Shown: positions 4,469 to 48,849 of the stretch, one piece after another
How the letters are laid out: the number at the start of each line of letters is the position of its first letter
Numbering within the stretch: position 1 is the first letter of the stretch
Origin: a virus
DNA: 64,000 nucleotides
IMG/VR virus record: IMGVR_UViG_3300009082_000016
Coordinates: 1-64,000 of that record
Direction: 5' to 3' (one strand)
Made by a program: the position numbers and the translations under genes
Notes under the pieces: generated by a model
What the model saw: the letters and a program-made list of their open reading frames with translations, nothing else
Database searches by the model: none
Told to the model about the DNA's origin: nothing

Positions 4469-5335
4469 ATGACGAACAACTTCCTGAAGCTCGAAGAAGT
4501 TGCCGATCACCTGGGGATGCCGGTCGACAAGGTGAAGGCGCTCGTCCAGACCCACCTCGTCCGGGTCTCCCGGGGCCTGGTGTCATTGGACGACGTGGCC
4601 ACCGTGCGGGAGGCCGAAAAAAGTCTGGGGGACCTCGGGTCGCTGGTCACCGAGGTCGCCGCCCTGAAGGCGGAGGTCCTGCGCCAGCGGCACATCATCC
4701 AGTTCGTGCTCCACGTCGCCGGGCTGCAGCAGCACCTCATCGAGGTCACGGACCCGCAGCTGATGCAGCTGCTAGAGATTGCCCGCATGGGCAGGGAAGC
4801 GATCACCCCCATCTCTGCTCGCACGATCGTCGGTCGCATCCAGCACATTGTCGAACTTTGCTTCTGCCTCACGGAGCGGGAGTTCCGGCGGATGGAGCGG
4901 CTGACCAAGGAGCCGCAGTGCTGGAAGGCCCTCATCTTCCTGGTCGAGAACATCGACGACGCGCTCGACAAGCGACCTGACTTGAAGCGACGTCCGGAGG
5001 TCCAGAAGGCCCGCTCCGAGCTGAACCTGGCCCGTCTGCATCTCGTCAACCTGGGGAAGTTCACGCTGGCGCTCAACGACCCGTTCTGCAACCCGAAGGA
5101 GCTGCTCGGCGAGATCTGCTTCCGGGCGGCGAAACTGGACTTGCTCACGCCGGCGTCGCGGGGATTCGACCCTGGGCAGGCGATCAGCGCGTTCGCAGAC
5201 GAGATCCGTCCGTCCACTCCGCCGGACGCGGAACCGACACGAAGATGTCCGGACGGGGGAACATCAAGCTCGCCGCCAGCAGGCAGTACAGACACGCATG
5301 GAGCGAGTCGTCCGGCTTCTCCGGATGGTGCATGA
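4469..5335 (+). CDS. N-terminal helix-turn-helix (excisionase/MerR-like) DNA-binding protein
   Basis: MTNNFLKLEEVADHLGMPVDKVKALV followed by a coiled coil; real start is inside ORF-track entry 2945..5335. Confidence 0.65.
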   Translation: MTNNFLKLEEVADHLGMPVDKVKALVQTHLVRVSRGLVSLDDVATVREAEKSLGDLGSLVTEVAALKAEVLRQRHIIQFVLHVAGLQQHLIEVTDPQLMQLLEIARMGREAITPISARTIVGRIQHIVELCFCLTEREFRRMERLTKEPQCWKALIFLVENIDDALDKRPDLKRRPEVQKARSELNLARLHLVNLGKFTLALNDPFCNPKELLGEICFRAAKLDLLTPASRGFDPGQAISAFADEIRPSTPPDAEPTRRCPDGGTSSSPPAGSTDTHGASRPASPDGA

Positions 5336-6869
5336 ACACCGTCTTCTGCCTCGCCGCGTTGAACTCCGTCGTGACATTGAGGAAGTCCTTGGCGTAGGGC
5401 TCGAACACGGGCCACGCCGGGAACTCGATGCGCCCCTGCTTGACGGCGTTGACGAACGCGGCCATCAGCTCGTCGCGCACGCCGATCCAAGACACCTTGA
5501 GCGGGTTCCAGTAGATGCGCCGTTTGGCCTCGGCCACGTAGCGCAGCTTGTGGTGCCGCTTCACGCCGAACGCCTCCTGGAGGATGTGGTTCTGGTGGAA
5601 GCCGATGCCGTAGTCGCCGAACGACACCTTCACGTTGAACATCCGGAACAGCTCGACCAGCAGCTTCGCCTGGGCCTCCGGCGACGACTCCATCCCCGTG
5701 AAGCGGTGAAGGTAGAAGATCTTGAACTTGTCGGGGCGGAGATAGGCGCCGAGAGCGACGACGGTCCACGAATGTTCCGCGGTCCCGTAGTCGGTCCCCA
5801 TGAAGATCTCGCGCTGGCCGGACCAGGCGATCGCCTCCCGCATCTGGTCCCTCGAGATGGTCCACTCCGGGTCGCAGCAGCGCACCAGCTCGGACTTCGT
5901 GAGCGGCCGGATGCCCGCCTCCCACGGGAGCGCCATGACCTCGTTGAAAAACTGCGGCCGGGGGTAGTTGGTGTACTTGTACAGGACCTTCTCGGTCCAC
6001 TGGTGGTCGGCGACCGACGGCGTCAGCATCTGCGGCAGCCGGTAACCGCGGAACTGCGCGTTCGACTGGCCGTCGACCCAGCCCCGCATCGGGTCGAAGC
6101 GGTCGATGATCTGGCCGCACTTGTCGCAGATGAGCCCCTTCTTCCCGAGGTGCTTCTCGCCGATGATGTTCCAGTGCCAGGTTGCGGGCTTGTTGCTCTC
6201 GCCGTGGCGCCGGCACGGGATAGCGAGCTCCGCCTGGCTCGAGATGTCCCAGTAGTACGTCAGCGTGTTGTCGAGCGACTTCGGCGTGCCGCTGTACGCC
6301 CGCCAGCCCGAGTAGGCCGGCAGGTCGGAGTGGGACAGCGTCTCCTCGAGGACCGGGACGTTCTCGATGAAGATGTCCTGCAGCTCGTCGACAGCGAGAT
6401 AGTCCGCCGGGACGCCGCGGACGCGGTCGGCCGAGCGGTTGGCGTACCGGAGCTCGATTGACGACTGGTTCCGCAGGACCTTCTGGTGGACGTTGTCCGG
6501 CAGCATCGGTTCCATCTCGGCCCGCAGGGAGGCTGAGTAGGCGAGCGGCTGCGCGATGCGGTCCTGGCTGAACTTCCGGGTCTGCGTCTGCGAGGGGCTG
6601 ACGTACAGCTCCTTGTAGTGCGGGATCATGCACGCCAGGGCCAGCATCTTGTTGCCCTGCGTTGTAGACTTCTCGCTCTGCCGGCCGATCATGATGACGA
6701 CCCGCGGGTCCGGCCGGTCCAGGATGGGGATGAGGTACTCGCGCTGTCTGAACGAGAACGGCAGGAGCTTCCCGCGAACCGGGATCTGGATGCGCCTCCG
6801 GATCCAGGTCGACACCCTCCACGGCAGCTTCGGCAGCGGAGGGGCCTCAGCCGGCTCGACGACCTTCAC
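5184..6869 (-). CDS. Terminase large subunit (lambda GpA-like)
   Basis: GRQSEKST Walker A variant, LAVDELQD Walker B, YSGTPK motif III, MGTDYG nuclease motif, KPDDSLHA; GTG start overlaps the upstream TGA. Confidence 0.9.
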   Translation of the reverse strand: MKVVEPAEAPPLPKLPWRVSTWIRRRIQIPVRGKLLPFSFRQREYLIPILDRPDPRVVIMIGRQSEKSTTQGNKMLALACMIPHYKELYVSPSQTQTRKFSQDRIAQPLAYSASLRAEMEPMLPDNVHQKVLRNQSSIELRYANRSADRVRGVPADYLAVDELQDIFIENVPVLEETLSHSDLPAYSGWRAYSGTPKSLDNTLTYYWDISSQAELAIPCRRHGESNKPATWHWNIIGEKHLGKKGLICDKCGQIIDRFDPMRGWVDGQSNAQFRGYRLPQMLTPSVADHQWTEKVLYKYTNYPRPQFFNEVMALPWEAGIRPLTKSELVRCCDPEWTISRDQMREAIAWSGQREIFMGTDYGTAEHSWTVVALGAYLRPDKFKIFYLHRFTGMESSPEAQAKLLVELFRMFNVKVSFGDYGIGFHQNHILQEAFGVKRHHKLRYVAEAKRRIYWNPLKVSWIGVRDELMAAFVNAVKQGRIEFPAWPVFEPYAKDFLNVTTEFNAARQKTVFMHHPEKPDDSLHACLYCLLAASLMFPRPDIFVSVPRPAEWTDGSRLRTR

Positions 6870-7309
6870 TTCAGCAGCTGGTCCAGCACCTTCTGCGCCG
6901 CCAGCTTCCGATCGAGCGGGGCGTTGGTCGGCGTGAAGAACCACGAGTCCCGCTCGGGCACCCACTCGAGCGTGCCGTCACGGAAGATCTCGCCGAGCGT
7001 GTCCTTCAGCCACGTCTGGATCTGCCGGCCCCAGGGGCCGTTGTAGAGCGGCCGGTTCACGAGCAGATGGGGCTGCGGGTTGTTCCGCAGGTCCTTGTTG
7101 GCCCCGCACTTCGGGCAGGAGTTGGCCAACGGGTCCTTCTGGACGTGCTTGCACCGCTTGCAGAGCACCTCGCTGTCCCGGTGCAGCTGGAAGATGACCT
7201 TCCCGTCCCGGTCGGTCACGTCCAGCCGGACCAGCCCCTTGCGGATCGCCTCGAACTCGATCCGCTCCACCTTGTCGACCGCGGCCCCGAACGCCTTCAT
7301 CTCGATCAT
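6866..7309 (-). CDS. Zn-ribbon protein
   Basis: CKRC...CPKC; overlaps both neighbours. Confidence 0.7.
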   Translation of the reverse strand: MIEMKAFGAAVDKVERIEFEAIRKGLVRLDVTDRDGKVIFQLHRDSEVLCKRCKHVQKDPLANSCPKCGANKDLRNNPQPHLLVNRPLYNGPWGRQIQTWLKDTLGEIFRDGTLEWVPERDSWFFTPTNAPLDRKLAAQKVLDQLLK

Positions 7310-10975: not shown

Positions 10976-12115
10976 CTAGAGCGGGATGGGGGGATCGGTG
11001 ATGGTGGGCGTGGCCGGGTTGATCGGGTGCTTGTGCGAGATAAGCCAGTTCAGCCAGGCCAGATTGATGGTCGCAAAAAATCCGGTGACGTGGAGTTCCT
11101 GGAAAGAACCGGCGCCCGTGACCCCGAGCGTCCCAGCGATCGTGGTGTTCCCCACGACGTTGAAACCGGCCGGAGCGGAGAAGGCGATCCGATTCGCGGC
11201 GATCGTCTTAGTCTTGGTGACGATCTCGGTGCTGTCCCCCCCAACGCCCTCCTGCCGGTCGCCCTGCACCGTCAAGTTGAGCTCCGAGTACTCCATCGTG
11301 ATGATGGCGCCCTTCTCGTCGATGTTGCCCTCGGCGTCGACGAAGAAGTGGTACTTCTCGCCCGACGCTTCCCAGGTCTCTTCGCCGATCTTCACGGAGG
11401 TCGGCGCAACAACGATGCGGAACCGCTTCTCCCCGGCGTCGCCCTTCACGATCCCAGCATCCACCAGGACAGAAGCGGACTCGTCCGCGGCGTGGGCCTT
11501 CACCATCAGCCGCCACTTCGCCTCGGCTTCGCTGCCGTCCTCGCCCTCCGTACGGCCCCCGTCGAAGTACTGGACGCCGGCGGCGGTGAACTGGCCGTAG
11601 TTCTCGCAGATGTCGCGGATGAAGTTGCCAAGCGGGATGAACAGCCGCTGGCAACTGGCCTTCGAGCCGATCTCCACGATGCCGCCCTTGCGGTAGTGGA
11701 TGAATGCCCCGTCTCGCGTCGTCCAGCCGAACTCGCCGTGCAGCCGCCGCGGCCGCCGCATCGAGTGGTCCGCCTGAATCTCATCACCCTCGGCCGGCGG
11801 CTGCCCTACGCGCTCCGAACTCGAGATGGCCCTGGGCAGACTGCGGAACGCGAGAATGAACGGCGTCCCCGCGTCGCCGGGCGTGGCGATCCAACAAGGG
11901 GCACCGATGTCAGGCAGGCAGTAGCCGCCCTCCCCGCGCTCGTGGTGGGCGTAGAACGAGCCGATCGGGAGGTCCGGGTACGTGCGCCCGCTGCCCTCCG
12001 TCTTCACCGTCGCCGTGTAACGGGCAAGGTCGACGTCGATCACCTTCGCCTCGAGGATGGAGCTGTAGCTGTCCCCCGCGTAGGTCGGTGCCTCGCGATA
12101 GGTCGGTTCAGCCAC
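10976..12115 (-). CDS. Baseplate central spike / gpV-Gp5-like protein
   Basis: N-terminal OB-fold-like segment (AKVIDVD..YTATV...LPDIGAPCWI), beta-helix-like C-terminus, terminal HKH metal motif; GTG at 12115. Confidence 0.7.
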   Translation of the reverse strand: MAEPTYREAPTYAGDSYSSILEAKVIDVDLARYTATVKTEGSGRTYPDLPIGSFYAHHERGEGGYCLPDIGAPCWIATPGDAGTPFILAFRSLPRAISSSERVGQPPAEGDEIQADHSMRRPRRLHGEFGWTTRDGAFIHYRKGGIVEIGSKASCQRLFIPLGNFIRDICENYGQFTAAGVQYFDGGRTEGEDGSEAEAKWRLMVKAHAADESASVLVDAGIVKGDAGEKRFRIVVAPTSVKIGEETWEASGEKYHFFVDAEGNIDEKGAIITMEYSELNLTVQGDRQEGVGGDSTEIVTKTKTIAANRIAFSAPAGFNVVGNTTIAGTLGVTGAGSFQELHVTGFFATINLAWLNWLISHKHPINPATPTITDPPIPL

Positions 12116-12785
12116 CGCGCACCATCCTCCAGCCCGCCTCGATGCCGTGCCGCCCGCAGAATCCCCCGGGCAGTTCGACCACAAAACGAACAGGCTCCGT
12201 CGACAGGTGCGGCGTGTCACTGTTCGGCTCGGCGGAATCGACGACGTTGGACACCGTCCCGTCAACCTTCACGAACACCATGTCCAGCGGGATCGGGACG
12301 TTCCGCATCCAGAACGAGCGGCGCTCGACGCTGGGGAAGTCGAACAGCATCCCCTGACCGTCGGGGAGATGCTGCCGGCCCATCAATCCGCGGCGAAGCT
12401 CGATGTCCCCTTGGGCCACCTCCACCACCACTCGCACGACGTCGCCTTCGACCGAGTTCGGGTTCACGAAGCGGATGGTGTCAACGCCCGAGGCCCACTT
12501 CCGCAGGGCCCCCACGAAGGCAGCGTACTTCACGGCGGCCGGCGATGAAGAGGCCATTCCCTCCCCCAACCAACGCGCCGCTCGACCGAAAGCTCGACCC
12601 GACTTCCTGACGGCAGGAATCGCACCGTGGTGGACCCGCCGGGCCGTCATCCTCGCCGCCTGGACCGCGTGCGGGAGGGCAGGAACGATCACCTCCCACG
12701 GAAGGTGCGGGAGGGCCATGAACTGCTGGAAGAGCTCGGCAACAACACCACCCTTCTTTCGCATCGGAATCTGGTTTGCCTGCAT
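12108..12785 (-). CDS. DUF192-domain protein with N-terminal K-x-A-containing extension
   Basis: RGLMGRQHLPDGQGMLFDF..SFWMRNVPIPLDMVFV..VVELPGG; preceded by VKYAAF and RKWASG. Confidence 0.8.
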   Translation of the reverse strand: MQANQIPMRKKGGVVAELFQQFMALPHLPWEVIVPALPHAVQAARMTARRVHHGAIPAVRKSGRAFGRAARWLGEGMASSSPAAVKYAAFVGALRKWASGVDTIRFVNPNSVEGDVVRVVVEVAQGDIELRRGLMGRQHLPDGQGMLFDFPSVERRSFWMRNVPIPLDMVFVKVDGTVSNVVDSAEPNSDTPHLSTEPVRFVVELPGGFCGRHGIEAGWRMVRGG

Positions 12786-15700
12786 CAGTATGCTCCCGGC
12801 TTCCCCGAGATCCCCTGCCCGAACCGCTCGTTGTAGGCCATCGCCGAGAAGGGGTTGTAGCCCGAGACGTCGGACTCGTTGCCCTGCAGGGCGGCCTCGA
12901 CGAGCGTGTCGCGCAGGCGCTCGTGGTTCATCTTCGCCAGCCAGTCCTCGGTGTTGGCCAGCGGCGCCGTCTTGATGCCCATCAGGACCGGGTTCACCTT
13001 GATCGGCTTCCGGCCCTTCAGGTCGGTGTGGTTGAGCTCGTTCGCCTTGGAGAGCGTGATGTACTGGCCCTTGACCAGGTCGGGGGCATCGCCCGGATCG
13101 GCGATGACGCCGGTGTTGGTCACGCCGCGGGCCAAGAGCTCGAGATTCCGCCGCCGGATGCCGAACGGCTTGAAGATGCCGTCCATCTCGGTGACGATCT
13201 GATTCCGCACCTGGTCGATGCCACCGATGTCGAGCAGCTCGCGCAGGTCGACGTTCCCATCCGTGATCGGCTTGCCCTTCCGGACCTGGCTGCCGACCTT
13301 GAGGTCGCCCACCAGTTTTCGATTCCCCGGAACGTAGTGGTCGATGTCGGAGCCGCGGCCCGTCGTGATGGTGACGTCGAAGCCGCCGGCGGGGTCTTCC
13401 TTGATGCGGGTGATCTTCCCATCCGCCGAGGCCAGCGTGGCCGGGTTGGAGATCTCCTCCGGGATCTGGAGCAGCTGCTTCACGCGAACCATCGCCGGGC
13501 TGCCCGCCTTCATCCCGGTCCCGCCCGTGTAGACGCCGGCGCCGTGCTTCGACTTGAGCATCAGCTGCGCCATGCGCTCGCCGATCGACTGCCCGGCCAT
13601 CACACCAAGGTTCTCACCCATTTGCGGGAGGTGGCCGTCGGGCATCAACCCGAACGCCTTGGACGAGATGCCCTCGCCGTGCGGGGACGTGAGCGGCGAC
13701 GCCACAATCACCTTCCGGATCCGGGCGTTCTTGAGCCGGTCGATCAGCTCGGAGTCGAGCAGCGTACCGCGCTTGAGGGTGAACTTCGCCGTCTTCACCG
13801 GCTCGACGAGGTAGCGGTCGACGACGTCGGGGTGGTCCGTGTCCATCGCGATGCCCTCATCGGGCAGCTGGTTCGACACGACCAGGGAGTTGCCGACGGT
13901 GTTGACCATCTGCTTGTTGATGTAGCCGGGATCCTGGACGGCGGTCTTCGTCTGGACGATGCCGGTGCGGGCGCCGATCGACGCCAGCCAGTAGCCGGTG
14001 GTATCCAGCCCTTCGCCGTACGACCGGGTCACGGGCTCCAGGACGGGATTGCCCTTGGAGTCGGTCATGAGCACCGGCGCCATGGTCATCTCCTGGAACT
14101 GGGACGACGACGGCTTCACGCCCGACCGCGACATGAGGTAGAGACGGTTGCCGGACGCCTTGGCGTTCTTCGCGTGCTCGGCGAGCATCCCCTTACCAGC
14201 TTCCGCCCACGCCTGGATGGCTTTCTCCTCACGGTCGGGGGCGTCGGTGGCCAAGGCCTCGCGGGCCTTCTTCTCGCCCTCCTTCATGTATCGATCGCGC
14301 AGCGGCTTGTCGGTCTTGAGATCCTTCGACGAGAGGCTGAACAACTCATCGTACACGGCGGCATTGCCGAGCCCCATCAGGGACTGGGCCGTCTGGACGT
14401 ACGCCTTCTTGTCCTTTTTGGCGACCTCCGTCAGCAGCTTCTCGGTGTTGTCCTTCGTGAGCTCGAACTCCGGGTCGAACAGCAGGTTCGGTTTCCGGGC
14501 GATGCCCGGCAACGATTGCCACACCAGGAGCCGGCCGGCAGTCGTCTTCTTCCCGCCGACACTCACGACATCCGTCATCCCGAGCTTCCCGGCGCTGACG
14601 GCGTTCACTGCTGCCTTCACAGAGCCGAAGGACCGGTCGGTTTCCTTCCCGAACTGGGACAGGCGGAAGAGGCCGACCGACATCTCGTTCCGCGGCGTGA
14701 ACATGGGCTTTCCAGTCGCCGGGTTGAGCAGGCTCTCGGAGGGGAACATCTTCCGCGCTTCGCCGACGGCCTTCCCGGAGACCGGGACGTAGAGGCTGAC
14801 CGCGTCGCCGTCGAAGTCGGCGCCCATCGACTCGGCGATGAGCGGCGGGATCTTGATCGCCCGGCCACCGACCAGCTGCGCCTTGAACGCCTGCACGCCG
14901 TACTTGTGGAGCACCGGGTCGCGCTTCATCAGCACGGGCCGGTCTTCCATCACCCGCTCGAGGGCGCGGAGGGCGAGCGGATCGTCCTTCTTCACCATCT
15001 CCTGCGCCTGCAGGGCACCGTTGCCCATGCGGGTCAGCTCTCGCACGACGAACGGGCGGTAGATGTTCTTGGCAACGGGCAACGGGATGCCCAGCTCGTC
15101 GATGGTCAGGTCCGGGTCCGGGATGATGGTCGACCGGGCGGCCAGATCCTGCTTCGACTTGAGCAGCTTCGACTGCACCCAGCTCCACTTCGGGCTGCCC
15201 GACCCGGCGATGACGTCGACGAAACCGCGCTGCTCGACGCCCTGGGTCGTCTTCACCGGGTCCATCACGCCGGCCAGCGAACCGAGCGACTTGTAGAGAG
15301 CGAAACGGGTCTTGCCCCTGCGGGATTCGGGCGTGTCCGGGTCCATGTCCTTGAGCCGCTCGTTCATCACGCCGACGCCCTTGTAGAGCTCGTTGAGCGA
15401 ATCGCGGACGAGGGCACCACTGGGCAGCACCGACATCGGCCGCATCGTCGGCGGGATGACGTACACCTGCTGGGACATGTACGCTTCGGTCGGGCTCATG
15501 CCCGTCTGCTTGAGCGCCGTCAGGTAGCGGTACTTCCTGACCGTCTGGTCGAGCTGTTGGCCCTCGAGATTCGGGATGCGGTCCCGGAGCTCCTTGATCT
15601 CCTTCTTCACGTCGATGGCCGAGAGGACCGACTTGACCGCCTCACCACCCGTCAGGGCGTTCGGGTCCTTCCGGTCGACCAGCTTCCCGTCTTTCGTGAG

Positions 15701-18700
15701 CCCGACCGTCCCGGCGATGACCCCGTGCAGATCCTTCTGCTTGAGGCCCGTCAAGGCCAGGACACCACGCTCGAAGAACGGGTTGGGCAGCGACTCCGCC
15801 AACGTGATGTTCGCAGGGTGCTCGCCCATGATCCCGCCCGTCACCTGCGGGTCGAACAGGCCGCCGTCCTCCGGCTTCAGGTCTTCGGCGCGGAGCATGA
15901 GCCCCGGCCGCTTCAGCTCGCCGTGGCTGGAGTCCAGGACCTGCTGGTCCGTCGTGGGGATCAGCTTCACGCGGGTCCCCTTCTTCTCCAACTTCACGCC
16001 GAGGCCCTTCAGGTACTCCTCGAACTTCGCGTGGGCGAACGTCAACTTCGGCGGCGGCAACGGCTGCCCCAACTGCACCGCACGCCAGAGCTCATCCGCC
16101 TGATCGGCATCGGCCTTCCAGGTGTGACTCTCCCGCAGGATCTCGCGGGAGCCATGGGCCAGGAGCGCCATGTTACCGAGGCCGCCGAGCGCCTGGGCCC
16201 CGCCGCCGTGCCCGCCCTTCGGTTGGCGGTTGACGTCGTAGCTGAAGCCTGGCCCACCGGCGCGGGAAGCCATCTTGCGGTCGACCTGGTGACGCTGCTT
16301 GAGCACGTAGGCGTAGCCGACTTCAGCTTTGCCCAACATCCGTCCGGTCGTGGGGTCGGTGACCTCGTCCTCTTCATCCACCCCGAGCTTGTCGAGCGAC
16401 TGCCGGGTGACCTCGCCGTAGTCGACGCCGGGGACGAAGTTCGGCACCTTGATCGGCGTGCCGATCTTCTTCGCCATCTTCGCCGTAGCCAACTCATAGA
16501 CCTGACCGGCGGCAACACGGGCGGCGACGCCGTGCGGGTTGATCGCCAGTTCGATGGGGCCATCCTTCGTCCGCGGCATCTCCTCGTCGGGGCGGATGTC
16601 GACCACGATCCCCTTGATGCCGTGGCGGGTGGTGACCTTGTCGCCGATCTGCAGCGGTTCCTGGGTCCGGACGTGAACCTTCACGGTCCCGGTCGGCGTA
16701 TGGTGGACACGGATGACCTCTCCGGCAACGTCCTGGTCCCAGGTGAGCGCGGCGTTCTGATACGGCTTGGCCAGAGAGCGGTGCATCCGCTTCATGGCCA
16801 AAGCTTCGTTCGTGTGCTCGATCGGGCGCAGACCCAGCACGAGCGGGTCGCCCGGCTTCACGATCGTCCCCGGCTTCACGATGCCGGAGCGGTCGACCAT
16901 CTTGTACTGATCGGTCGTGAACGCCGTCGGGTAGTACGCCTGGAACTTCTTCGGGTCAACGATCTCCTGCTCGTCCGGGAGCGCGTCGATCTTGTGCAGG
17001 TGCTCGCTGGTCAACTTCTTCGCGCCGCCCTCCGACATCACGACCGCGTCCTCGTAGGTGCGGCCGGGAATCGGGATGAGCGCCGTTCGGAGGTTGGTCC
17101 CCAGGGCAAGCACGCCGCCCCGGGTGAAGTTGGAGTCGGCCAGCATCTGGTTCTTTCGCACCATCTGGCCCGGCTTCACCAGCGATTCCTCGTGGATGAG
17201 CTCGCGCTTTCCAGTCAGCGGGTAGTTCTGGTACAGCGGGACCGTGTGCATCTTGCCGGACGTCGAGCGGATGCGGACCTCGCCGTTCTTGATGGACGTC
17301 ACCTTGCCGGTCACGGGCGACAGCGGCAGTGTCTCACGGCCGACCATCTCCTCCATGCTTTCCCGGGAAGAGGAATCAACAGCGACCTGGACCAGCGGGG
17401 CCTCGCGCGTCGTGAGCGGGATGGCCTGCGACATGTGACGCGACGCCATCTCGACACGGCCGGGGTTGGTGTTCTGCACGAAGGGGACAAGCGCCGTGCC
17501 CATGCCCAGCAGCAGGCCCGGGTTGGTCACGATGTACTCGACCTTCTCCGGGTCGACGCGAACGAACTTGTTGCCGATGCCCGACACCCGGACCTTCTTG
17601 TTGACCGGGACCCACTTCTTGCCTTCCTTCCGGTACTGGTCAGGCATTGCCACGACCGAGGTTTCAAAGACGGTGGGGTCGACATTCTCGTACTTCTTCG
17701 TCCGGGTGTTGTAGAGCGTCGTCCGCGGCGTGGTCCCGTCCTTCATCAGGCCCATGGCGAGCTGCAGATTGACGCCGACGTTCTGTCCTTCCGGCGTATC
17801 GAGCGGGTCGATGAAAGCGACGTGGGACGGGTTGACCGCCTTTGCCTCGGAATGCTCCAGGGCATAGGCGCTGCCGGCCTCGCCGAGGATGGTGCTCCGC
17901 ATCGACGAGCGGATCATGTCGACGGGGTTGGTCTGCTCACCGAGCTGGCTCAGCGGAGAGCCGGTGAAGAAGCCTCGAATGGGCCAGTGGAACATGTTGC
18001 CCCGCACGGCCAGGTCCACCCGGTCATGCCGGTCGACTGCGTTCTTGAGCGACCGGGTCTTGTACTGCCCGAACTTCTTCACCGAGAACGCGAGATGATC
18101 ATCGATGCCGATGAGGTTCTTGAACTTCAGGCTGTCGCGGTCGTCAGGCTCCGAGTTGCCGCGGGAGACGGACAGGGCCCGCTTGGAGGCCTGGAGCAGG
18201 AGCTCCGGGGTGACCTGCCGATACGACTTCCCAAGCGTGATCTTCGTCGTGTCAGGGTCCATCGTCAACGAGCTCAGCGCGTCGCGGACCTGGAGCGCGT
18301 CGCCCGGCTTGCCGAAGGCCCGACCGAGCTTCCCGAAGGCGGACTCCGCCCGTTTCGCCGTGACGTCGTTCGCCTTGGCAATCTCGTCACCCCAAGCGCG
18401 GGCGATGACCGAGTTGCTGATGCCCATGGCGTTGAGCACGGGCTTGAGCGGGACGGTCGATCCGCCCGTCTTCAGTTTGAACGCCTTCTGCGCGGCGTCG
18501 AACTCGATGTTGAGGCTGCGCTCCGGGGTGACGATGCTGGAAACGACCGACCGGGCCTTCGGGTAGGTGAAAACGCCCGGCCGTCCCTTCCACAGGTGGT
18601 CGACGTAGTACTCCTTGCCGTCGACGATGTAGCCCCGGGCAGCCGTCACCGCCGGCAGCGTGCCCAGCGGGACCTCCCCGCGGGACTTCACCTTCCCGGT

Positions 18701-18946
18701 GGCTGCATCGCGGAGGGTGAACCGACCGACCAGCGGTACGCCCCACGTCTCGTCGTTGAGCCGGGCGTTCAACTGGGAGTCCACGTCCCGCATGTCCGGC
18801 TCTTTCGAGTACCGAATGTCCTCGAGCTCGAGCACGTTCCGCTTCCCGATGATGGGGAAAACGCCTTTGACCGTCTCCACCAGGCGATTCCGGAGGTTTT
18901 CGAACATCCCACGCGGGTCAGCAGCGTACGGGGGCGGCTTCGCCAT
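12785..18946 (-). CDS. rpoBC: Single-chain multisubunit-type (two-barrel) DNA-directed RNA polymerase, beta-beta' fusion, 2053 aa
   Basis: Beta motifs: DTPEGQNVG, YEDAVVMSE, GDKVTTRHGIKG, YVLKQRHQVDRKMASR. Beta' motifs: VIPPTMRP, RDPVLHKYGVQAF, catalytic GADFDGD (DFDGD at 14804-14818), bridge helix, trigger loop GQSIGE..QLMLKSKH. Confidence 0.95.
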   Translation of the reverse strand: MAKPPPYAADPRGMFENLRNRLVETVKGVFPIIGKRNVLELEDIRYSKEPDMRDVDSQLNARLNDETWGVPLVGRFTLRDAATGKVKSRGEVPLGTLPAVTAARGYIVDGKEYYVDHLWKGRPGVFTYPKARSVVSSIVTPERSLNIEFDAAQKAFKLKTGGSTVPLKPVLNAMGISNSVIARAWGDEIAKANDVTAKRAESAFGKLGRAFGKPGDALQVRDALSSLTMDPDTTKITLGKSYRQVTPELLLQASKRALSVSRGNSEPDDRDSLKFKNLIGIDDHLAFSVKKFGQYKTRSLKNAVDRHDRVDLAVRGNMFHWPIRGFFTGSPLSQLGEQTNPVDMIRSSMRSTILGEAGSAYALEHSEAKAVNPSHVAFIDPLDTPEGQNVGVNLQLAMGLMKDGTTPRTTLYNTRTKKYENVDPTVFETSVVAMPDQYRKEGKKWVPVNKKVRVSGIGNKFVRVDPEKVEYIVTNPGLLLGMGTALVPFVQNTNPGRVEMASRHMSQAIPLTTREAPLVQVAVDSSSRESMEEMVGRETLPLSPVTGKVTSIKNGEVRIRSTSGKMHTVPLYQNYPLTGKRELIHEESLVKPGQMVRKNQMLADSNFTRGGVLALGTNLRTALIPIPGRTYEDAVVMSEGGAKKLTSEHLHKIDALPDEQEIVDPKKFQAYYPTAFTTDQYKMVDRSGIVKPGTIVKPGDPLVLGLRPIEHTNEALAMKRMHRSLAKPYQNAALTWDQDVAGEVIRVHHTPTGTVKVHVRTQEPLQIGDKVTTRHGIKGIVVDIRPDEEMPRTKDGPIELAINPHGVAARVAAGQVYELATAKMAKKIGTPIKVPNFVPGVDYGEVTRQSLDKLGVDEEDEVTDPTTGRMLGKAEVGYAYVLKQRHQVDRKMASRAGGPGFSYDVNRQPKGGHGGGAQALGGLGNMALLAHGSREILRESHTWKADADQADELWRAVQLGQPLPPPKLTFAHAKFEEYLKGLGVKLEKKGTRVKLIPTTDQQVLDSSHGELKRPGLMLRAEDLKPEDGGLFDPQVTGGIMGEHPANITLAESLPNPFFERGVLALTGLKQKDLHGVIAGTVGLTKDGKLVDRKDPNALTGGEAVKSVLSAIDVKKEIKELRDRIPNLEGQQLDQTVRKYRYLTALKQTGMSPTEAYMSQQVYVIPPTMRPMSVLPSGALVRDSLNELYKGVGVMNERLKDMDPDTPESRRGKTRFALYKSLGSLAGVMDPVKTTQGVEQRGFVDVIAGSGSPKWSWVQSKLLKSKQDLAARSTIIPDPDLTIDELGIPLPVAKNIYRPFVVRELTRMGNGALQAQEMVKKDDPLALRALERVMEDRPVLMKRDPVLHKYGVQAFKAQLVGGRAIKIPPLIAESMGADFDGDAVSLYVPVSGKAVGEARKMFPSESLLNPATGKPMFTPRNEMSVGLFRLSQFGKETDRSFGSVKAAVNAVSAGKLGMTDVVSVGGKKTTAGRLLVWQSLPGIARKPNLLFDPEFELTKDNTEKLLTEVAKKDKKAYVQTAQSLMGLGNAAVYDELFSLSSKDLKTDKPLRDRYMKEGEKKAREALATDAPDREEKAIQAWAEAGKGMLAEHAKNAKASGNRLYLMSRSGVKPSSSQFQEMTMAPVLMTDSKGNPVLEPVTRSYGEGLDTTGYWLASIGARTGIVQTKTAVQDPGYINKQMVNTVGNSLVVSNQLPDEGIAMDTDHPDVVDRYLVEPVKTAKFTLKRGTLLDSELIDRLKNARIRKVIVASPLTSPHGEGISSKAFGLMPDGHLPQMGENLGVMAGQSIGERMAQLMLKSKHGAGVYTGGTGMKAGSPAMVRVKQLLQIPEEISNPATLASADGKITRIKEDPAGGFDVTITTGRGSDIDHYVPGNRKLVGDLKVGSQVRKGKPITDGNVDLRELLDIGGIDQVRNQIVTEMDGIFKPFGIRRRNLELLARGVTNTGVIADPGDAPDLVKGQYITLSKANELNHTDLKGRKPIKVNPVLMGIKTAPLANTEDWLAKMNHERLRDTLVEAALQGNESDVSGYNPFSAMAYNERFGQGISGKPGAY

Positions 18947-18983: not shown

Positions 18984-19019
18984 CAGCGCAAGAACCGGTA
19001 CCGGCACCGTCATAAGAGA

Positions 19020-19112
19020 GATGCTGACCGTAGGACCCCGCTTTCCTGCGCGACGCACCACGGGGGGTTTCCCCCGACTCCGCCGTGGGATTCCACGGGC
19101 ACTCCGTGCATC
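19020..19112 (+). other. Multi-stem structured RNA leader or small ncRNA candidate
   Basis: Stems CGTAGGA/TCCTGCG, CGGGGG/CCCCCG, CCGTGG/CCACGG, closed by GATGC/GCATC; directly after GTCATAAG. Confidence 0.45.
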
Positions 19113-19119
19113 AGGAGGC

Positions 19120-19188
19120 ATGAAGAACAATCCCACGCGGCGAGCCGGTGAAGGAATCATCTGGCTCATCCGCATCCTCTTCGGCTGA
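19120..19188 (+). CDS. 22-aa peptide MKNNPTRRAGEGIIWLIRILFG
   Basis: AGGAGG lies only 1 nt before the ATG; TGATG overlap with the next ORF. Confidence 0.4.
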   Translation: MKNNPTRRAGEGIIWLIRILFG

Positions 19189-19367
19189 TGCCCTGGCTGT
19201 GGCTGGCGAAGACCATCGCCCTAGTAGGAGCCGAACTGATCGGTGAAGGTGTCACCGATCTCCTGCTGGACGAGGTCAAACCCAGGCCTGCAAGACTTCC
19301 ACGGCCCGCGCCGGAAACGACGCAGGCACGCCTCGCTCGGGGCTCCCGATACCAGCGCAAGCGGTAA
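19188..19367 (+). CDS. 59-aa protein with hydrophobic N-terminus and basic tail
   Basis: MPWLWLAKTIALVGAELIGEG...RYQRKR; translationally coupled; fills the gap before the convergent portal gene. Confidence 0.45.
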   Translation: MPWLWLAKTIALVGAELIGEGVTDLLLDEVKPRPARLPRPAPETTQARLARGSRYQRKR

Positions 19368-19390: not shown

Positions 19391-21262
19391 CTAGATCATC
19401 GCGGTGTTGGGGCCGGCTCGAGGCGGACGCTGCTCGGGCATGGCCCGGGCGCCCGGGGCGGATCCCGAAGGAGCGGGGACCAGCGTCTTCATGACCTGGG
19501 CGTACAGCTCCGGCTGGGAGGCCTGGAGCTGGGTGAGTGCCATGCTTTTTTGTTCCTGTGGCATGGCGGAGATCTGCTCGGCCAGCTTCCGCGGAACGAC
19601 GCGGGCGTCGAGCCCCTGCAAGGCACCCGTGTAGGGGTTCTTGGGGCTGGGGGCTTCGATGCCCTGCGGGCCACCGACGGCACCGGGGATGCGGACCTGC
19701 GAACCAACGCCCAGAGCCTGCTGGACCTGGCCCTGGATCATCTGCGCCTTCGCTTGGTACTCGGCCTGGACCAGCATCGTCTCACCCTGCACGCGGGCCG
19801 ACGCCTTCCCCTGCTCGGCCATCGTCGTCAGATTCTCCTTGCGCTCCTGGGCGACAAGTTCCTGCTCGCGGGCCGGGTTGTAGTCCATGCCCGCCAGCAT
19901 GGTCTCGCGGGAGATGGCGCCCATCTGGTTCAGGTTCATCGACATCGACTGGCGCTGGATGTCGTCAGCCATCTTGAACGGCTTCACGTGCCAGTCGGGG
20001 ATCTCCCAGTGGAGATACTTCGCCGACGTCTTGCACACCCACTTGAGCAGCAGCTTCCGCTGCTCGATGAAGCGGAGAAAACTGTTCTCCAACATCCGAA
20101 GCGCGATGGACGAACCGGACCAAGCCACGTCGCCGAACACCAACGACGGCGGATAGCCCATGCCGACGATGATCTGTTCGGACATCACCCGGATCTCCTG
20201 CGACAGCAGGAGCGCCCGGCCTTCGCCGCCGACCATCTGGTGGCCGACCGGGAACGGGAGGATCGGCGTGTAGAGCGGGTCGTAGCGGAACTTGCGGAGC
20301 TCCAGCTCCAGCATGTTGCGCCACTCGGACAGGTTGACGTTCATCACCGGGTCCTGCATCGGCCCGCCGGCCTGCGGGAAGAAGATGCGGAGCGGGATGA
20401 TCGTCCCGAGCGACAGGGCCTCCTGCGCCTTCTTGAGAATCTGGAGGTAGAAGACGTCCTTGAGCACGGGCAGGATGACCGGCGACCCGAGGCCCTGCTC
20501 GCGGGTCGAGCAGGTGGTGCGCTTCAGGTAGAACAGGTTCTCGGGGTTGAGCCGGATGGAGCGGCCGAGCCGGACGGCCTCGAGCAGCTCCTGGGCGCAG
20601 TTGGCGACGACGTGCTTCTTCCCCGAGACGATGTCGGCGCGGAGGTCGGGCGGCGGGTTGTAGACGTAGTCCACCTTGCCCGATTCCTCGTGGTAGTGGA
20701 CGTCGATGTCGATCGGGTTCCGGCGCATGAGCCGGATGCCCTCGACGGCCCCGACGTAGCGATCCCGTGCCCGGGCCTTCCCGCTTTGACCGCACTTCGG
20801 GCACTTCAGCAGGAAGCGGTCGACCGCGTACCGCCACCACTTCTTGTTCGTCTCCGCGTCGACCTCGTGGTTGCAGTGCATGCAGGTCAGCAGCTTCCGG
20901 AACGGGAAGCTGAAGGTGATGATGCACGCGCCGAAGACGTGGTAGTCGAGTGCCGCCCCGATCTCGAACGACTTGTACTGCAGCCGGTCGAAGAGGTAGT
21001 CCTCCCACTTCAGGCGGATGTCGTCGTTCGGCGACTCGATCACGACGTCCGTGATCGGGTACTCGGACAGCTTCGTGCAGATGGCGTTGATCAGGGGGTT
21101 GGTACGGAAGTAGAAGTCGCACCAGCGGTACAGCGACTTGACGGACCGGGGGATGTACGTCGACGCAACATCGAAGAACGGCGACGGGTATGCGATCCCG
21201 CGCTCCGCGTTGAAGATCGGGTTCTTCGACGCAAGGGGTTGGAACTCGGACGGCGTCGACAT
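19391..21262 (-). CDS. Portal protein with an inserted C4 Zn-ribbon
   Basis: YRWCDFYFRTNPLINAIC, DYHVFG, GSPVILPVLKD, IIVGMGYPPSLVFG..WSGSSIALRMLE, Gln-rich tail; CMHC...CPKC insert. Confidence 0.75.
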   Translation of the reverse strand: MSTPSEFQPLASKNPIFNAERGIAYPSPFFDVASTYIPRSVKSLYRWCDFYFRTNPLINAICTKLSEYPITDVVIESPNDDIRLKWEDYLFDRLQYKSFEIGAALDYHVFGACIITFSFPFRKLLTCMHCNHEVDAETNKKWWRYAVDRFLLKCPKCGQSGKARARDRYVGAVEGIRLMRRNPIDIDVHYHEESGKVDYVYNPPPDLRADIVSGKKHVVANCAQELLEAVRLGRSIRLNPENLFYLKRTTCSTREQGLGSPVILPVLKDVFYLQILKKAQEALSLGTIIPLRIFFPQAGGPMQDPVMNVNLSEWRNMLELELRKFRYDPLYTPILPFPVGHQMVGGEGRALLLSQEIRVMSEQIIVGMGYPPSLVFGDVAWSGSSIALRMLENSFLRFIEQRKLLLKWVCKTSAKYLHWEIPDWHVKPFKMADDIQRQSMSMNLNQMGAISRETMLAGMDYNPAREQELVAQERKENLTTMAEQGKASARVQGETMLVQAEYQAKAQMIQGQVQQALGVGSQVRIPGAVGGPQGIEAPSPKNPYTGALQGLDARVVPRKLAEQISAMPQEQKSMALTQLQASQPELYAQVMKTLVPAPSGSAPGARAMPEQRPPRAGPNTAMI

Positions 21263-21272
21263 CGACTACCCC

Positions 21273-21977
21273 CTAACCCTGGCCCTGGTACTCCGGGTAC
21301 TCCGAGTACTCCGGGGGCAACGGGGCCGGAGGCCGAGCCATCAGCCGTCCCGGCAGACCACCCACGGCACCGCCGCCGACGAACCCGGCGATGCTGGGGA
21401 CCAGGCCAAGCGGGGCGCCGGCGAGCCACGTCAGATTCGAGCCGAGCTCGGATCCGAAGTGGTGAAGCCTGGACTTGTACGGTGAGCCGGGCCGACCGTA
21501 TTCCGATTCCGGCGTTCGCGTCACGTCCCGTGCCCCGGTGTAGCCGAAGTACCCGAAGAGGCCCTTGTGGACCGGGCTCATCGACTTCCAGCTCTGGGAA
21601 ACCACCTTCCCCGGTTCCCTGACGAACGCCTGCGCCATGCCGGGAATCGTTCCGCCCGTGGTCGTCGCCCACTCCAGTTCGGCCTTCGCCCTGTTCAGAG
21701 CTTTCAAGGCCCGCGCCTCGGCCGGCGTTCCCCTGACCTTGGCCAGCGCGGCCTCGGCTTCCTGGAGGCCCTTGACTGCTCCGTGCTGCCCCGCACCGAT
21801 GCGCTTCAGGATCTCCGTCTGCTCAGCGGCCGACCGTCGGGCCATTCCCGGGAGCCAGCCTGTCGTTCCGTGGATGGAGCGAGCGAACCAAGGCAGGAAC
21901 TTTCCCTTCGCCGCCATCGCGGCCTGCAGGAAGTCGGCCTGCTTCATCATCGGCCTCGGGATCGGGGGATAGATCAT
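21273..21977 (-). CDS. Gly-rich Cys-free putative ejection/internal protein
   Basis: MMKQADF leader; Gly-rich hydrophobic C-terminal helix; PEY repeats at the end. Confidence 0.7.
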   Translation of the reverse strand: MIYPPIPRPMMKQADFLQAAMAAKGKFLPWFARSIHGTTGWLPGMARRSAAEQTEILKRIGAGQHGAVKGLQEAEAALAKVRGTPAEARALKALNRAKAELEWATTTGGTIPGMAQAFVREPGKVVSQSWKSMSPVHKGLFGYFGYTGARDVTRTPESEYGRPGSPYKSRLHHFGSELGSNLTWLAGAPLGLVPSIAGFVGGGAVGGLPGRLMARPPAPLPPEYSEYPEYQGQG

Positions 21978-23032
21978 ACCGTCCTCACTCCCGGGATCAT
22001 GCTGGGCATCTGAGGCATCGCAGGCATCTGCATGGGCATCGACGGGGGCGGCATGTTGATCGTGACCGGAGCCTGGGATGCCTGCGGAGGCGGAGGCGGC
22101 AACTGCTGCTGGCCGCCGCCCATGAACCGGCTGCTGATCGCCGGCGCCGCGAAGCTCGCGGCCAGGCCAGGAATGACACCCGCCCTGAATGCAGGCAGCG
22201 GGGCCAGGATGTTGAAAGCCGCCGTCAGCGGGTCCTGCTCACCGCGCAGCACGGCGGGCGCCTGCATGGCCGCCGAGATGTACGTGGGGTACCGGATCCA
22301 CTTGTCAGCCCACAGCGCCTTCATTCCGCCGGGCTGGAAGACGCTCTTGTACGAGTCGATGAGCCCCATCTTCCCGCCCTTCGCCGCCGTTCCGGCAGCC
22401 GCGCCGCCCGCGGCCGTAGGAGAAGGTGGAAGACCCTTGTGGGCTCCGGGAAAGTTGACCGGATGGGGTTCCAACGCCGCAGGGGCCCGCACCGGGATCT
22501 TGGCAGGCGGGAGCTGCCGTGCGGCCGATGCCGGAAGGGTGGGAATCCGCCGCGACGCCGCGTTCGCCATCCACCGCTCCCAGTTTGCAGCCCGCAGCGG
22601 AGCGGAACGGACCATGGCGGAACCACCCCTCTGGAGCGCCCCCCCGAGGCGCGGAAGGAACGTACCCGCCCGGCGCCCGAGAAACCCTCCAAGGCGGGCG
22701 ACAAGCGCCCCCAACCCGGCCCATTGCGCTTCCTTGAGCATGGCGTCGATGCCTGCCTGATGGGTGGGGATGGGCCCCGGCTTCCTTTGGGCGGCCGCGA
22801 ACTTGATCACGTACGCCACGTCGATAGGCTTGTAGGCCGCGACCTTCGGCTTCTTCCGCTGTTCCACCTTGCGGAAGTCCTCATGGGTCTTGTGCTGCCC
22901 CCACGCGGTCGTCACCGGATTGGCGACGGGACGAAGTTCGGCCCGGAGGAGACGGGTGATGTCTTCGGCGATCACGGACGAGGCGCCCGCTCTTTTTTGC
23001 CACCGCGGTCCCGCCGGAATCATCAACGCCAC
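21974..23032 (-). CDS. Gly/Pro-rich Cys-free putative ejection/internal protein
   Basis: QKRAG, IKFAA, LKEAQWAGLGALVARLGGFLG amphipathic helix; Pro/Met tail. Confidence 0.7.
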   Translation of the reverse strand: MALMIPAGPRWQKRAGASSVIAEDITRLLRAELRPVANPVTTAWGQHKTHEDFRKVEQRKKPKVAAYKPIDVAYVIKFAAAQRKPGPIPTHQAGIDAMLKEAQWAGLGALVARLGGFLGRRAGTFLPRLGGALQRGGSAMVRSAPLRAANWERWMANAASRRIPTLPASAARQLPPAKIPVRAPAALEPHPVNFPGAHKGLPPSPTAAGGAAAGTAAKGGKMGLIDSYKSVFQPGGMKALWADKWIRYPTYISAAMQAPAVLRGEQDPLTAAFNILAPLPAFRAGVIPGLAASFAAPAISSRFMGGGQQQLPPPPPQASQAPVTINMPPPSMPMQMPAMPQMPSMIPGVRTV

Positions 23033-28657: not shown

Positions 28658-28717
28658 CCCGCAACTTCCCCCGGGGCCCCGTCATAAGGACCTTGCACGT
28701 GGAGAGGAGGTGTTTTC

Positions 28718-48126: not shown

Positions 48127-48849
48127 ATGAGCGGCACTTCGACCCAGGATCTCCAGCTCTGGAACCAGTGGAACCAGGGCGGCCGCAAGCGCGGAGACCT
48201 CGAACCGCTGCTCGACAACCTCGATCCGCTCGTTCACAACGCCGTCAACCAGTACGCCGGGAAGGTGAACATCCCGTCGGAGGCCATCCAGTCGAAGGCG
48301 GAAGACCTCGCGATCAAGGGGATCAAGTCCTTCAACCCCGGGAAGGCCCAGCTGTCCACGCACGTCGCCTGGCAGCTGCGCGGCCTCAACCGCTTCGTGA
48401 CGACCTACCAGAACCCGGCCCGCATCCCGCAGCACCAGACCCACAAGATCCAGGCGCTGATCACGACGCGGGACCGGATGACCTCCGCGATGGGGCGGCC
48501 GCCGACCGACTACGCGCTGGCGAGAAAGCTGCACTGGACGCCGCGGCAGGTGGGCTCGCTCCAGAAGGGGCTCTCCCGCCGAGTGCTCGACCCGGAGATG
48601 TTCAAGCTGCGCGACCCGCGCTCGTTCTCGCCGTCCCGCTTCAAGGAGGTCATGCAGCTGTTGCCCTCCGAGCTCGGGCCGCGGGAGAAGTTCGTGTTCA
48701 AAGCTACGTACGGGATCGGCCGCCAGAAACCGCTGTCGGCGTCCCAGATGGCAAAAAAGTTGCGGACGTCGCAGGCGACGATCTCCCGCACGCGAAAGCG
48801 GGTCGCCGGCATCATCGCCCGCTACATGAACGTCGGAGGTGAACGATGA
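48127..48849 (+). CDS. Sigma70-family (group 3, SigB/F/FliA-like) sigma factor
   Basis: Region 2 (PLVHNAVNQY..IKGIKSFNPGKAQLSTHVAWQLR..ARIP), region 3 (MGRPPTDYALARKL), region 4 HTH (LGPREKFVF..YG..SQMAKKL..SQATISR). Confidence 0.85.
   Translation: MSGTSTQDLQLWNQWNQGGRKRGDLEPLLDNLDPLVHNAVNQYAGKVNIPSEAIQSKAEDLAIKGIKSFNPGKAQLSTHVAWQLRGLNRFVTTYQNPARIPQHQTHKIQALITTRDRMTSAMGRPPTDYALARKLHWTPRQVGSLQKGLSRRVLDPEMFKLRDPRSFSPSRFKEVMQLLPSELGPREKFVFKATYGIGRQKPLSASQMAKKLRTSQATISRTRKRVAGIIARYMNVGGER

Follow-up and report, generated by a model that had tools for sequence, protein, structure and literature searches.

Cellular bacterial RNA polymerase (RNAP) needs alpha2 and omega, and natural rpoB-rpoC fusions occur in Helicobacter and Wolbachia. 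In jumbo phages, virion RNAPs of the phiKZ/AR9 type were reportedly described by Yakunina in 2015. These beta/beta'-type enzymes are packaged and injected, work without alpha and omega and allow host-independent early transcription (PMC8287921; PMC13282480). They have no sigma-70-family factor, and in phiKZ they consist of four to five polypeptides and come in two paralogous sets, virion and non-virion. The virion RNAP of phage N4, gp50, is a T7-like single-subunit enzyme with large terminal ejection domains; it is encoded among late/virion genes, has no cysteine in 3500 residues (N4 RNAPII: 13 in 673) and is ejected to start transcription, and a second RNAP serves the middle genes. Cysteine suppression is a published hallmark of the ejection proteins of Schitoviridae (PMC11445570) and is explained there as a way of coping with the passage across the periplasm (PMC11445570; PMC13434306). 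In the crAss-like phage phi14:2, gp66 is a virion-packaged single two-barrel chain with a DFDxD active site (bioRxiv 10.1101/2020.03.07.982082), but it is kin to RNA-dependent/YonO-type two-barrel enzymes and not to full-length bacterial beta/beta', and it has no sigma-70-family factor.

Salmonella phage Arash (OQ632216.1) and its Vibrio relatives D69, D148 and D181 come nearest to the locus described here. In Arash and D69 the RNAP comes directly after the portal, beta is joined to the first part of beta', the N-terminal Zn domain of beta' is lacking and the enzyme is almost free of cysteine (5-6 in ~2130 residues). However, beta' is interrupted near residue 1470 and continues in a second gene, the two parts being separated by other genes or homing endonucleases. 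The Arash paper annotates the RNAP proteins without analysing the enzyme (PMC10585845), and our literature search found no paper analysing this enzyme.

The gene studied here lies in a window of 64,000 nucleotides, which is the whole stretch that the earlier note covered and belongs to the complete 172.7-kb genome of an uncultured phage (DTR-bounded, rated 100% complete). Translation from the ATG at 18946 yields one uninterrupted frame of 2053 residues without any cysteine, as the earlier note had found; the two cysteines of a longer, TTG-started frame sit 5' of Met1. This start is favoured over the gene callers' Met14 by an N-terminal 'DPxxxF..L' element that the chain shares with P0005 and P0006. 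A plus-strand ORF of 2079 aa was rejected as a gene, being the usual antisense shadow of high-GC DNA (GC3 of the minus frame 0.91). Pfam places Rpb2_3 and Rpb2_6 of beta (Rpb2_6, E 1e-41) and then Rpb1_1 (below cut-off), Rpb1_2 and Rpb1_5 of beta' in this single frame. More than 80 metagenomic homologues have the same layout; a two-chain layout (beta plus beta'N, and beta'C) is not what we see here. The coordinates of all features are given in the table.

Table. Features of the RNAP locus and of related loci in the window
Feature	Position	Strand	Remark
Single-chain beta-beta' RNAP gene	12785..18946	-	stop codon 12785-12787; 2053 aa, 0 Cys
Beta module, residues 1-985	15992..18946	-	spans E. coli beta 51-1338, minus lineage-specific insertions SI1 and SI2
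Beta/beta' junction KGLGVKLEKKG/TRVKLIP, residues 980-997	15956..16009	-	beta end (E. coli ~1338) passes directly to beta' (E. coli ~19)
Beta' module, residues 986-2053	12788..15991	-	AlphaFold2 model
Deleted beta' N-terminal Zn-binding domain, GLFDPQVTGG/IMGEHPANITL	15800..15862	-	alignment gap
Catalytic Mg-binding motif GADFDGD, residues 1375-1381	14804..14824	-	conserved
Bridge helix, ~residues 1651-1682	13901..13996	-	conserved
Trigger-loop His1801 (E. coli H936)	13544..13546	-	invariant across family alignment
Second Zn site rewritten without Cys, ASPLTSPHGEGISSKAFG, residues 1749-1766	13649..13702	-	S1754, S1761, A1764
DUF192 protein gene	12108..12785	-	own ATG overlaps RNAP stop
Large terminase gene	5184..6965	-	other head-block landmark
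Portal gene	19391..21262	-	directly upstream of RNAP; matches Arash gp204 at 27% identity (E 1e-75)
Promoter-like GCAA-N18-TCATAAG	18988..19016	+	motif; between RNAP and portal genes
Second copy, GCAA-N17-GTCATAAG	28661..28688	+	30 nt 5' of UDG/primase/PolA operon
Cys-free sigma-70-family gene, regions 2-4	48127..48849	+	orthologue of Arash virion sigma gp10; predicted RNAP partner

The earlier note had described a fused chain, shorter than cellular beta plus beta', with intact catalytic centre and two lost Zn sites, and all of this is borne out. The chain has the domain order, catalytic motifs and fold of cellular bacterial RNAP, and the C-terminus of beta is joined directly to the N-terminus of beta' as in the natural rpoB-rpoC fusions; the sampled bacterial enzymes are 230-740 residues longer. 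The beta active-site segment GDKVTTRHGIKG aligns to E. coli beta 1063-1074 and conforms to the lysine motif of the double-psi barrel (GDK..RHGNKG), and the rifampicin-pocket positions D516, H526 and S531 are occupied by E, S and T. The beta' model (pLDDT 83.8) matches solved bacterial beta' chains in Foldseek with TM 0.80-0.85 and E down to 6e-67. The ORF encodes a minimal bacterial-type RNAP core, beta and beta' in one polypeptide, which is predicted from sequence and model to be active.

In the alignment with E. coli beta', the gap lies exactly on the N-terminal Zn-binding domain (~66-100; C70/C72/C85/C88). The corresponding motif (CxC..CxxC) was present in 24 of 25 bacteria, the exception being the fused protein of a Paceibacterota contig (L044) with three of the four cysteines retained, and in none of 19 phage-clade sequences checked; the deletion is common to the whole phage clade. 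At the second site, E. coli C888, C895 and C898 align with the serines and the alanine listed in the table. C814 has no partner in the pairwise alignment, which has a short gap at this point; in the family alignment the fourth ligand position is L1694 (13865-13867), so that the site here reads L/S/S/A. A motif search (DCG..C-x6-C-x2-C) found this site in 25/25 bacteria, in Arash, in D69 and in 14/17 fused representatives. The phiKZ non-virion RNAP retains it as well (gp74 C288/C341/C350/C353).

At the rate of the phage's predicted proteome (1.25%) about 26 cysteines would be expected in the RNAP, and the probability of finding none is ~6e-12; even at the lowest rate seen among sampled bacterial rpoBC (13 per 2424 aa; range 13-31 cysteines) it is ~1e-5. 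The replication proteins are richer in cysteine, as claimed before (PolA 17, primase-region proteins 6 and 14), and the portal of the same phage has 10. Retention of Zn-binding cysteines by homologues had been named as evidence against an ejected enzyme. This is half the case: in a set of 87 intein-less fused homologues the four cysteines of the second Zn site are kept in 82, but 68 of those contain exactly four cysteines in total. Since the four ligands are the sole cysteines of most homologues, the argument for cysteine avoidance becomes stronger, not weaker. The completely Cys-free state has at least two independent origins. Fusion, Zn-domain deletion and cysteine avoidance are traits of the whole clade and not particular to this gene.

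As a mark specific to ejection, lack of cysteine is weakened by two comparisons. Many plain structural proteins of Arash contain little or no cysteine (MCP 0, tail tube 0, gp229 2/2548), so that a low content marks a virion protein at best and not an ejected one. The virion RNAP of phiKZ is ejected despite 16 cysteines (0.61%, versus 1.16% in the non-virion RNAP), and thus lack of cysteine is not needed for ejection. PHROG and Pfam searches with 26 neighbouring or Cys-poor proteins, other Cys-free ones included, remained mostly blank. We read the total absence here, including loss of the second Zn site, as an adaptation to an extracellular, ejected life: a Cys-free protein may pass through the oxidising periplasm and fold again free of metal or disulfide problems. 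The parallel with N4 gp50 drawn in the earlier note stands in this respect and in the late/virion gene location, albeit the two enzymes share no homology.

The position of the gene had been given as between portal and spike. It does adjoin the portal gene, but its other flank is a DUF192 gene (also following the RNAP in the relative L007), unknowns and then the large terminase, and PHROG and Pfam did not confirm a spike there; the RNAP is thus placed between portal and terminase in the minus-strand late head block. The order portal-RNAP is kept in Arash, D69, L007 and L008.

Within the complete genome this is the only beta/beta' locus and no separate non-virion RNAP locus exists, in contrast to phiKZ and N4. 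Genes for alpha and omega (PF01000, PF01193, PF01192) gave no Pfam match in the complete genome, whereas control genomes matched in 14/14 cases, which extends the absence of alpha noted before for the window. We infer that the phage's only RNAP works without phage-encoded alpha or omega. The enzyme could also make use of host alpha, omega or sigma.

In contrast to the phiKZ/AR9-type phages, a sigma-70-family factor is encoded. The gene at 48127-48849 is 31% identical to Arash gp10 (E 1e-22); neither protein contains cysteine, and the same is true for 16/16 homologues. Searching the genome with the Pfam model Sigma70_r2 gave no match, and the gene surfaced only via a family profile, which matches solved SigA over regions 2-4 with E 2e-12. 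Two further sigma-like genes lie elsewhere in the genome, an ECF-like sigma and a region-4-only protein (1 and 3 cysteines). Prediction of the RNAP-sigma complex gave a score of 0.75 versus 0.09 for the best control, a value that was reached by 58/80 solved complexes and 2/110 mismatched pairs. At least 57% of the contacts recur between runs, the partner pLDDT is at least 70, and sigma region 2 is predicted to sit on the beta' clamp helices. The predictor may be reproducing solved holoenzymes, so that the result speaks for resemblance and not for binding. The most likely source of specificity is these phage sigmas, i. e. the Cys-free factor, the ECF-like sigma and the region-4-only protein.

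The earlier note had proposed that the RNAP is a virion protein, and the Arash orthologues speak for this, if indirectly. In purified Arash virions gp206 was detected with 128 unique peptides, more than any other protein, gp216 with 40 and the orthologous sigma gp10 with 24, whereas obvious contaminant enzymes were at 2-3 peptides; the second Arash sigma, gp196 (3 cysteines), is not among the listed virion proteins (PMC10585845). RNR, ligase and primase are, however, among the 116 proteins (of 252) listed for the same preparation (PMC10585845), and hence abundant cytoplasmic proteins may have been carried over. Moreover, these data concern a relative at ~30% identity with a two-chain enzyme. 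By analogy, packaging of the RNAP in the virion is likely, and the enzyme would then presumably be injected.

The interpretation that we prefer, with a probability of about 0.65, is that the single-chain core and the Cys-free sigma are packaged and delivered and start early transcription at phage promoters, the core being the phage's only RNAP. Both would be late products of the head and virion gene blocks, packed in the capsid and delivered along with the DNA. Early transcription would then proceed from phage-specific promoters (candidates GCAA-N17-19-GTCATAAG) and should be rifampicin-insensitive. Speculatively, the later stages of transcription may fall to newly made core, acting with the remaining sigma-like proteins. 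We are more hesitant about the full form of this proposal, and advance it only as a tentative and somewhat doubtful idea: that a complete sigma-dependent holoenzyme is stored in a tailed-phage capsid, delivered through tail and envelope, and refolds and transcribes without zinc or cysteine.

Alternatively, the RNAP might not be packaged at all. The host RNAP would then read the RNAP gene along with the early genes, leaving the middle and late stages to the phage core and its sigmas within the cell. The missing cysteines would be a by-product of clade history, i. e. of a four-Cys ancestor and one loss of a Zn site. A sole RNAP gene must serve the later stages anyway, the three sigma-like genes suggest an intracellular cascade, and many cytoplasmic enzymes were found in the Arash virion preparation. 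The chain also has no extra terminal domain for packaging or ejection, unlike N4 gp50. Yet the gene belongs to the late head block, right behind the portal gene in every relative examined, and of all virion proteins in Arash it is the orthologue that was detected best, not as a trace component. Furthermore, exclusion of all cysteines other than the Zn ligands across a deeply diverged clade needs a selection which this model lacks, and it is shared by the orthologous sigma but not by the other sigma-like proteins, including Arash gp196. We therefore consider a purely intracellular enzyme unlikely, though by no means negligible.

It is also conceivable that the single chain is not autonomous, replacing only the catalytic subunits and joining host alpha2 (and omega) or a host sigma. 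The bacterial-type overall fold fits this idea, and absence of phage alpha and omega is expected as well if host subunits are borrowed. However, covalent fusion of beta to beta' would remove the main role of alpha in RNAP assembly, the clamp helices are the predicted docking site of a dedicated sigma that is conserved together with the enzyme, and the hosts of the relatives are very different while the enzyme is 25-29% identical to any bacterial rpoBC. Enzymes of the phiKZ and AR9 type function with neither alpha nor omega, and the host subunits are not bound by them (PMC13282480). Dependence on host subunits thus appears improbable. The origin of the enzyme as a captured and streamlined bacterial rpoBC, which the earlier note had proposed, is not supported by the phylogeny as a traceable event. 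A recent capture with subsequent trimming would agree with the clear bacterial-type architecture and with the fact that the enzyme is nearer to bacterial rpoBC than the phiKZ-type enzymes are (it is detectable by BLAST). But the 80 best matches among bacteria are spread over all phyla sampled at a flat 25-29% identity, and a back-translated scan of one genome per prokaryote species (185,579) found no close relative and no hint of a host or prophage. Identity to the Arash and D69 enzymes is 27-30%, and together with Arash gp206/gp216 and D69 the RNAP forms one deep monophyletic clade (support 1.0) that lies outside the sampled phyla; its stem measures 1.16 substitutions per site. As judged from sequence the RNAP is not a recent bacterial capture, and such an origin is hardly credible. 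The clade attached beside CPR and two odd 'Gammaproteobacteria' MAG contigs, which is probably long-branch attraction. Megablast against 50,697 phage records had no match; the family comprises at least 120 fused homologues, and their contigs reach 215 kb.

If packaging and delivery of the single chain and its sigma are correct, this would be the simplest known bacterial-type transcription machine, a chain of ~2050 residues plus a sigma of 240 residues, without alpha, omega, zinc or cysteine. It would constitute a third, sigma-dependent route to host-independent early transcription beside the N4 and phiKZ types, and would carry the rule of no cysteine in ejected proteins beyond Schitoviridae. 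Lack of cysteine might serve to predict ejected enzymes. The second beta' Zn site would then be dispensable, though phiKZ and all sampled bacteria retain it; the enzyme is a test case for how essential this site and the alpha platform really are. The compact set of core, sigma and promoter, predictedly rifampicin-insensitive, is also a possible orthogonal expression system.

The link between the candidate promoters and the RNAP is circumstantial, with four motif copies only. CATAAG occurs just four times in 172.7 kb, and three or four of these copies have GCAA or TGAA 17-19 nt upstream; a genome-wide search for over-represented k-mers gave no strong repeated promoter word. The copy between RNAP and portal points toward two small plus-strand ORFs (19021-19188 and 19188-19367), and the same motif is found at syntenic places in L007 and L008.

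The RNA polymerase (RNAP) gene encodes a single chain in which the Pfam domains of beta (Rpb2_3, Rpb2_6) are followed by those of beta' (Rpb1_1, below the cut-off, Rpb1_2 and Rpb1_5). An N-terminal element common to close homologues supports ATG 18946 as its start. The family profile spans E. coli beta 51-1338 and beta' 30-1347 without the lineage-specific insertions SI1, SI2 and SI3, and the C-terminus of beta joins beta' residue ~19 directly. The earlier note had described a fused, cysteine-free enzyme with an intact catalytic centre and without either beta' Zn site, and this description holds: the translation contains no Cys; conservation extends to the active-site motif of beta, to GADFDGD, to the bridge helix and to the His of the trigger loop; a gap replaces the N-terminal Zn-binding domain (E. 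coli beta' 66-100); and the second Zn site reads L1694/S1754/S1761/A1764. Since Cys makes up 1.25% of the predicted proteome, ~26 would be expected in this chain (P(0) ~6e-12). AlphaFold2 models the beta' module (pLDDT 83.8) with confidence in both former Zn regions, and the result resembles bacterial beta' chains (TM 0.80-0.85); this indicates conservation of the fold and not zinc-free stability, because the underlying alignment includes homologues with Zn sites. D516, H526 and S531 of E. coli beta, the classic rifampicin-resistance positions, are E, S and T in the rifampicin-binding cluster here (residues 323-392, 17771-17980(-)). As known resistance positions are substituted, the sequence predicts insensitivity to rifampicin.

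The virus record, whose first 64 kb make up the window, is a single contig of 172,723 bp with direct terminal repeats, 65.8% GC and a completeness rating of 100%; matches to known families are scarce among its genes. It contains only one beta/beta' locus and, in line with the earlier note, no match to alpha, nor to omega. We infer that the enzyme works independently of alpha.

The earlier note proposed capture of a bacterial rpoBC. In a maximum-likelihood tree (1795 columns) the fused family groups with the polymerases of Salmonella phage Arash and Vibrio phage D69 (support 1.0), and a long stem leads to this clade. Across 185,579 prokaryote species (one genome each) no close relative was found, and a profile scan brought up ordinary rpoBC of every phylum, uniformly 25-29% identical; a recent capture is unsupported. 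Arash, D69 and the fused family all have beta attached ahead of beta', so the fusion is clade-wide. The split within beta' of Arash and D69, where genes or homing endonucleases occupy the gap, looks secondary.

More than 120 fused homologues of ~2050 aa exist in metagenomes, on contigs of up to 215 kb, and inteins lengthen many of them to 2400-3600 aa. Of the 87 members without inteins, 68 contain four Cys and no more, and five are Cys-free. The conserved columns (C-x59-C-x6-C-x2-C) form the second Zn site of beta', kept by 82 of the 87. The cysteine-free state arose at least twice on the family tree, in the clade of our RNAP (P0002, P0004, P0005 and P0006; 61-100% identity) and in P0089. All 25 bacterial beta' sampled, which span many phyla, carry the DCG...C-x6-C-x2-C motif, as do Arash, D69 and 14/17 fused representatives; phiKZ nvRNAP also retains the second site (PMC8287921). 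The N-terminal motif occurs in 24/25 bacteria and nowhere in the phage clade, and beta plus beta' contain 13-31 Cys in bacteria versus 0-6 in the phage clade. Our RNAP is a derived, Zn2-less and Cys-free member of a large phage clade. This clade is essentially unstudied: jumbo-phage RNAP reviews of 2021 and 2026 mention neither a single-chain fused form nor the clade containing Arash, and targeted literature searches found no paper on it.

The best-supported reading, to which we give a probability of roughly two in three, is that the RNAP is packaged in the virion together with a sigma factor. In Arash virions the RNAP protein gp206 ranks first of all proteins with 128 unique peptides; the second RNAP protein, gp216, has 40, sigma gp10 24 and the robustly detected helicase gp217 38, likely contaminants have 2-3 each, and a second sigma, gp196 (3 Cys), is missing from the list (PMC10585845). 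The gp217 helicase (472 aa, L001:23142-24560 in Arash) is Cys-free and its gene adjoins that of beta'C; BLAST found no orthologue in our phage. The order portal then RNAP is conserved in Arash, D69 and two further relatives, L007 and L008. The RNAP may then be injected. Cys suppression is also documented for Schitoviridae ejection proteins, where it is ascribed to periplasm passage (PMC11445570). In N4 the 3500-aa vRNAP lacks Cys altogether, against 13 in the 673 aa of RNAPII; in phiKZ the vRNAP has 0.61% Cys versus 1.16% for the nvRNAP, but is not Cys-free. Caution is called for in that the capsid and tail proteins of Arash are Cys-poor too, and in that its virion preparation yielded a list of 116 proteins.

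The candidate partner is a sigma-70-family factor orthologous to gp10, both without Cys. Its family profile matches solved SigA over regions 2-4 (E 2e-12); 15 of 16 members match Sigma70_r3 and all 16 are Cys-free. Complex prediction docks its region 2 onto the clamp helices of beta' (score 0.75, best control 0.09; at least 57% of contacts common to runs, partner pLDDT at least 70), a mark attained by 58/80 solved complexes and 2/110 mismatched pairs. As holoenzyme structures are already solved, this is likeness rather than proof. Two further region-4 proteins may hint that several phage sigmas act in a cascade with the one polymerase.

The genome has no more than four copies of CATAAG, and in three or four of them GCAA or TGAA lies 17-19 nt upstream. 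One copy lies between the RNAP and portal genes, facing two small ORFs, another 30 nt upstream of the UDG operon; L007 and L008 (RNAPs 61% and 38% identical) have the motif at syntenic places. It fits a candidate phage-specific early promoter, possibly linked to the RNAP. The first small ORF, with its ATG 4 nt past the GTCATAAGAG motif, looks leaderless.

Features of the phage genome (window positions unless a stretch or the genome is named)
Feature	Position	Strand	Remarks
Large terminase	5184-6965	-	
DUF192 (COG1430) protein	12108-12785	-	translationally coupled to RNAP stop codon, also in L007
RNAP	12785-18946	-	2053 aa
Two small ORFs	19021-19367	+	55 and 59 aa, ATGA overlap, opposite to flanking genes
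Portal	19391-21262	-	Arash gp204: 27% identity, E 1e-75
Two genes immediately upstream of portal	21273-23032	-	234 and 352 aa, Cys-free, no family match
Replication block	26-45 kb	+	helicase, UDG, Toprim primase, PolA, RecA-like gene
Helicase	26234-28093	+	intein-splicing remnant
PolA	32821-35910	+	LAGLIDADG insertion
Sigma-70-family factor	48127-48849		240 aa
Large protein	L015:1-3741 (genome 85004-88744)	-	1246 aa, 0 Cys, neither Pfam nor PHROG match
Large Cys-poor protein	genome 154796-156265		0 Cys
Large Cys-poor protein	genome 158739-160919		1 Cys
Second region-4 protein	L107:1399-2040	-	ECF-like, 214 aa, 1 Cys
Third region-4 protein	L108:1369-1728	-	region 4 only, 120 aa, 3 Cys

The portal-RNAP gap of L007 and L008 likewise holds small opposite-strand ORFs. 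Immediately upstream of its portal L007 has three genes, all Cys-free; the two at this spot in our phage possibly encode further packaged proteins.

Among bacterial-labelled contigs, a Paceibacterota (CPR) MAG contig (L044:289-6810) has rpoB and rpoC joined in a single ORF of 2284 aa; the product contains 13 Cys, and its N-terminal Zn motif is degenerate. This is either a fusion that occurs naturally in bacteria or an element binned in error. In two contigs labelled 'uncultured Gammaproteobacteria' (L084, L101) rpoB is unusually short (~1090 aa); they branch beside the phage clade, perhaps through long-branch attraction or because the lineages are mislabelled.
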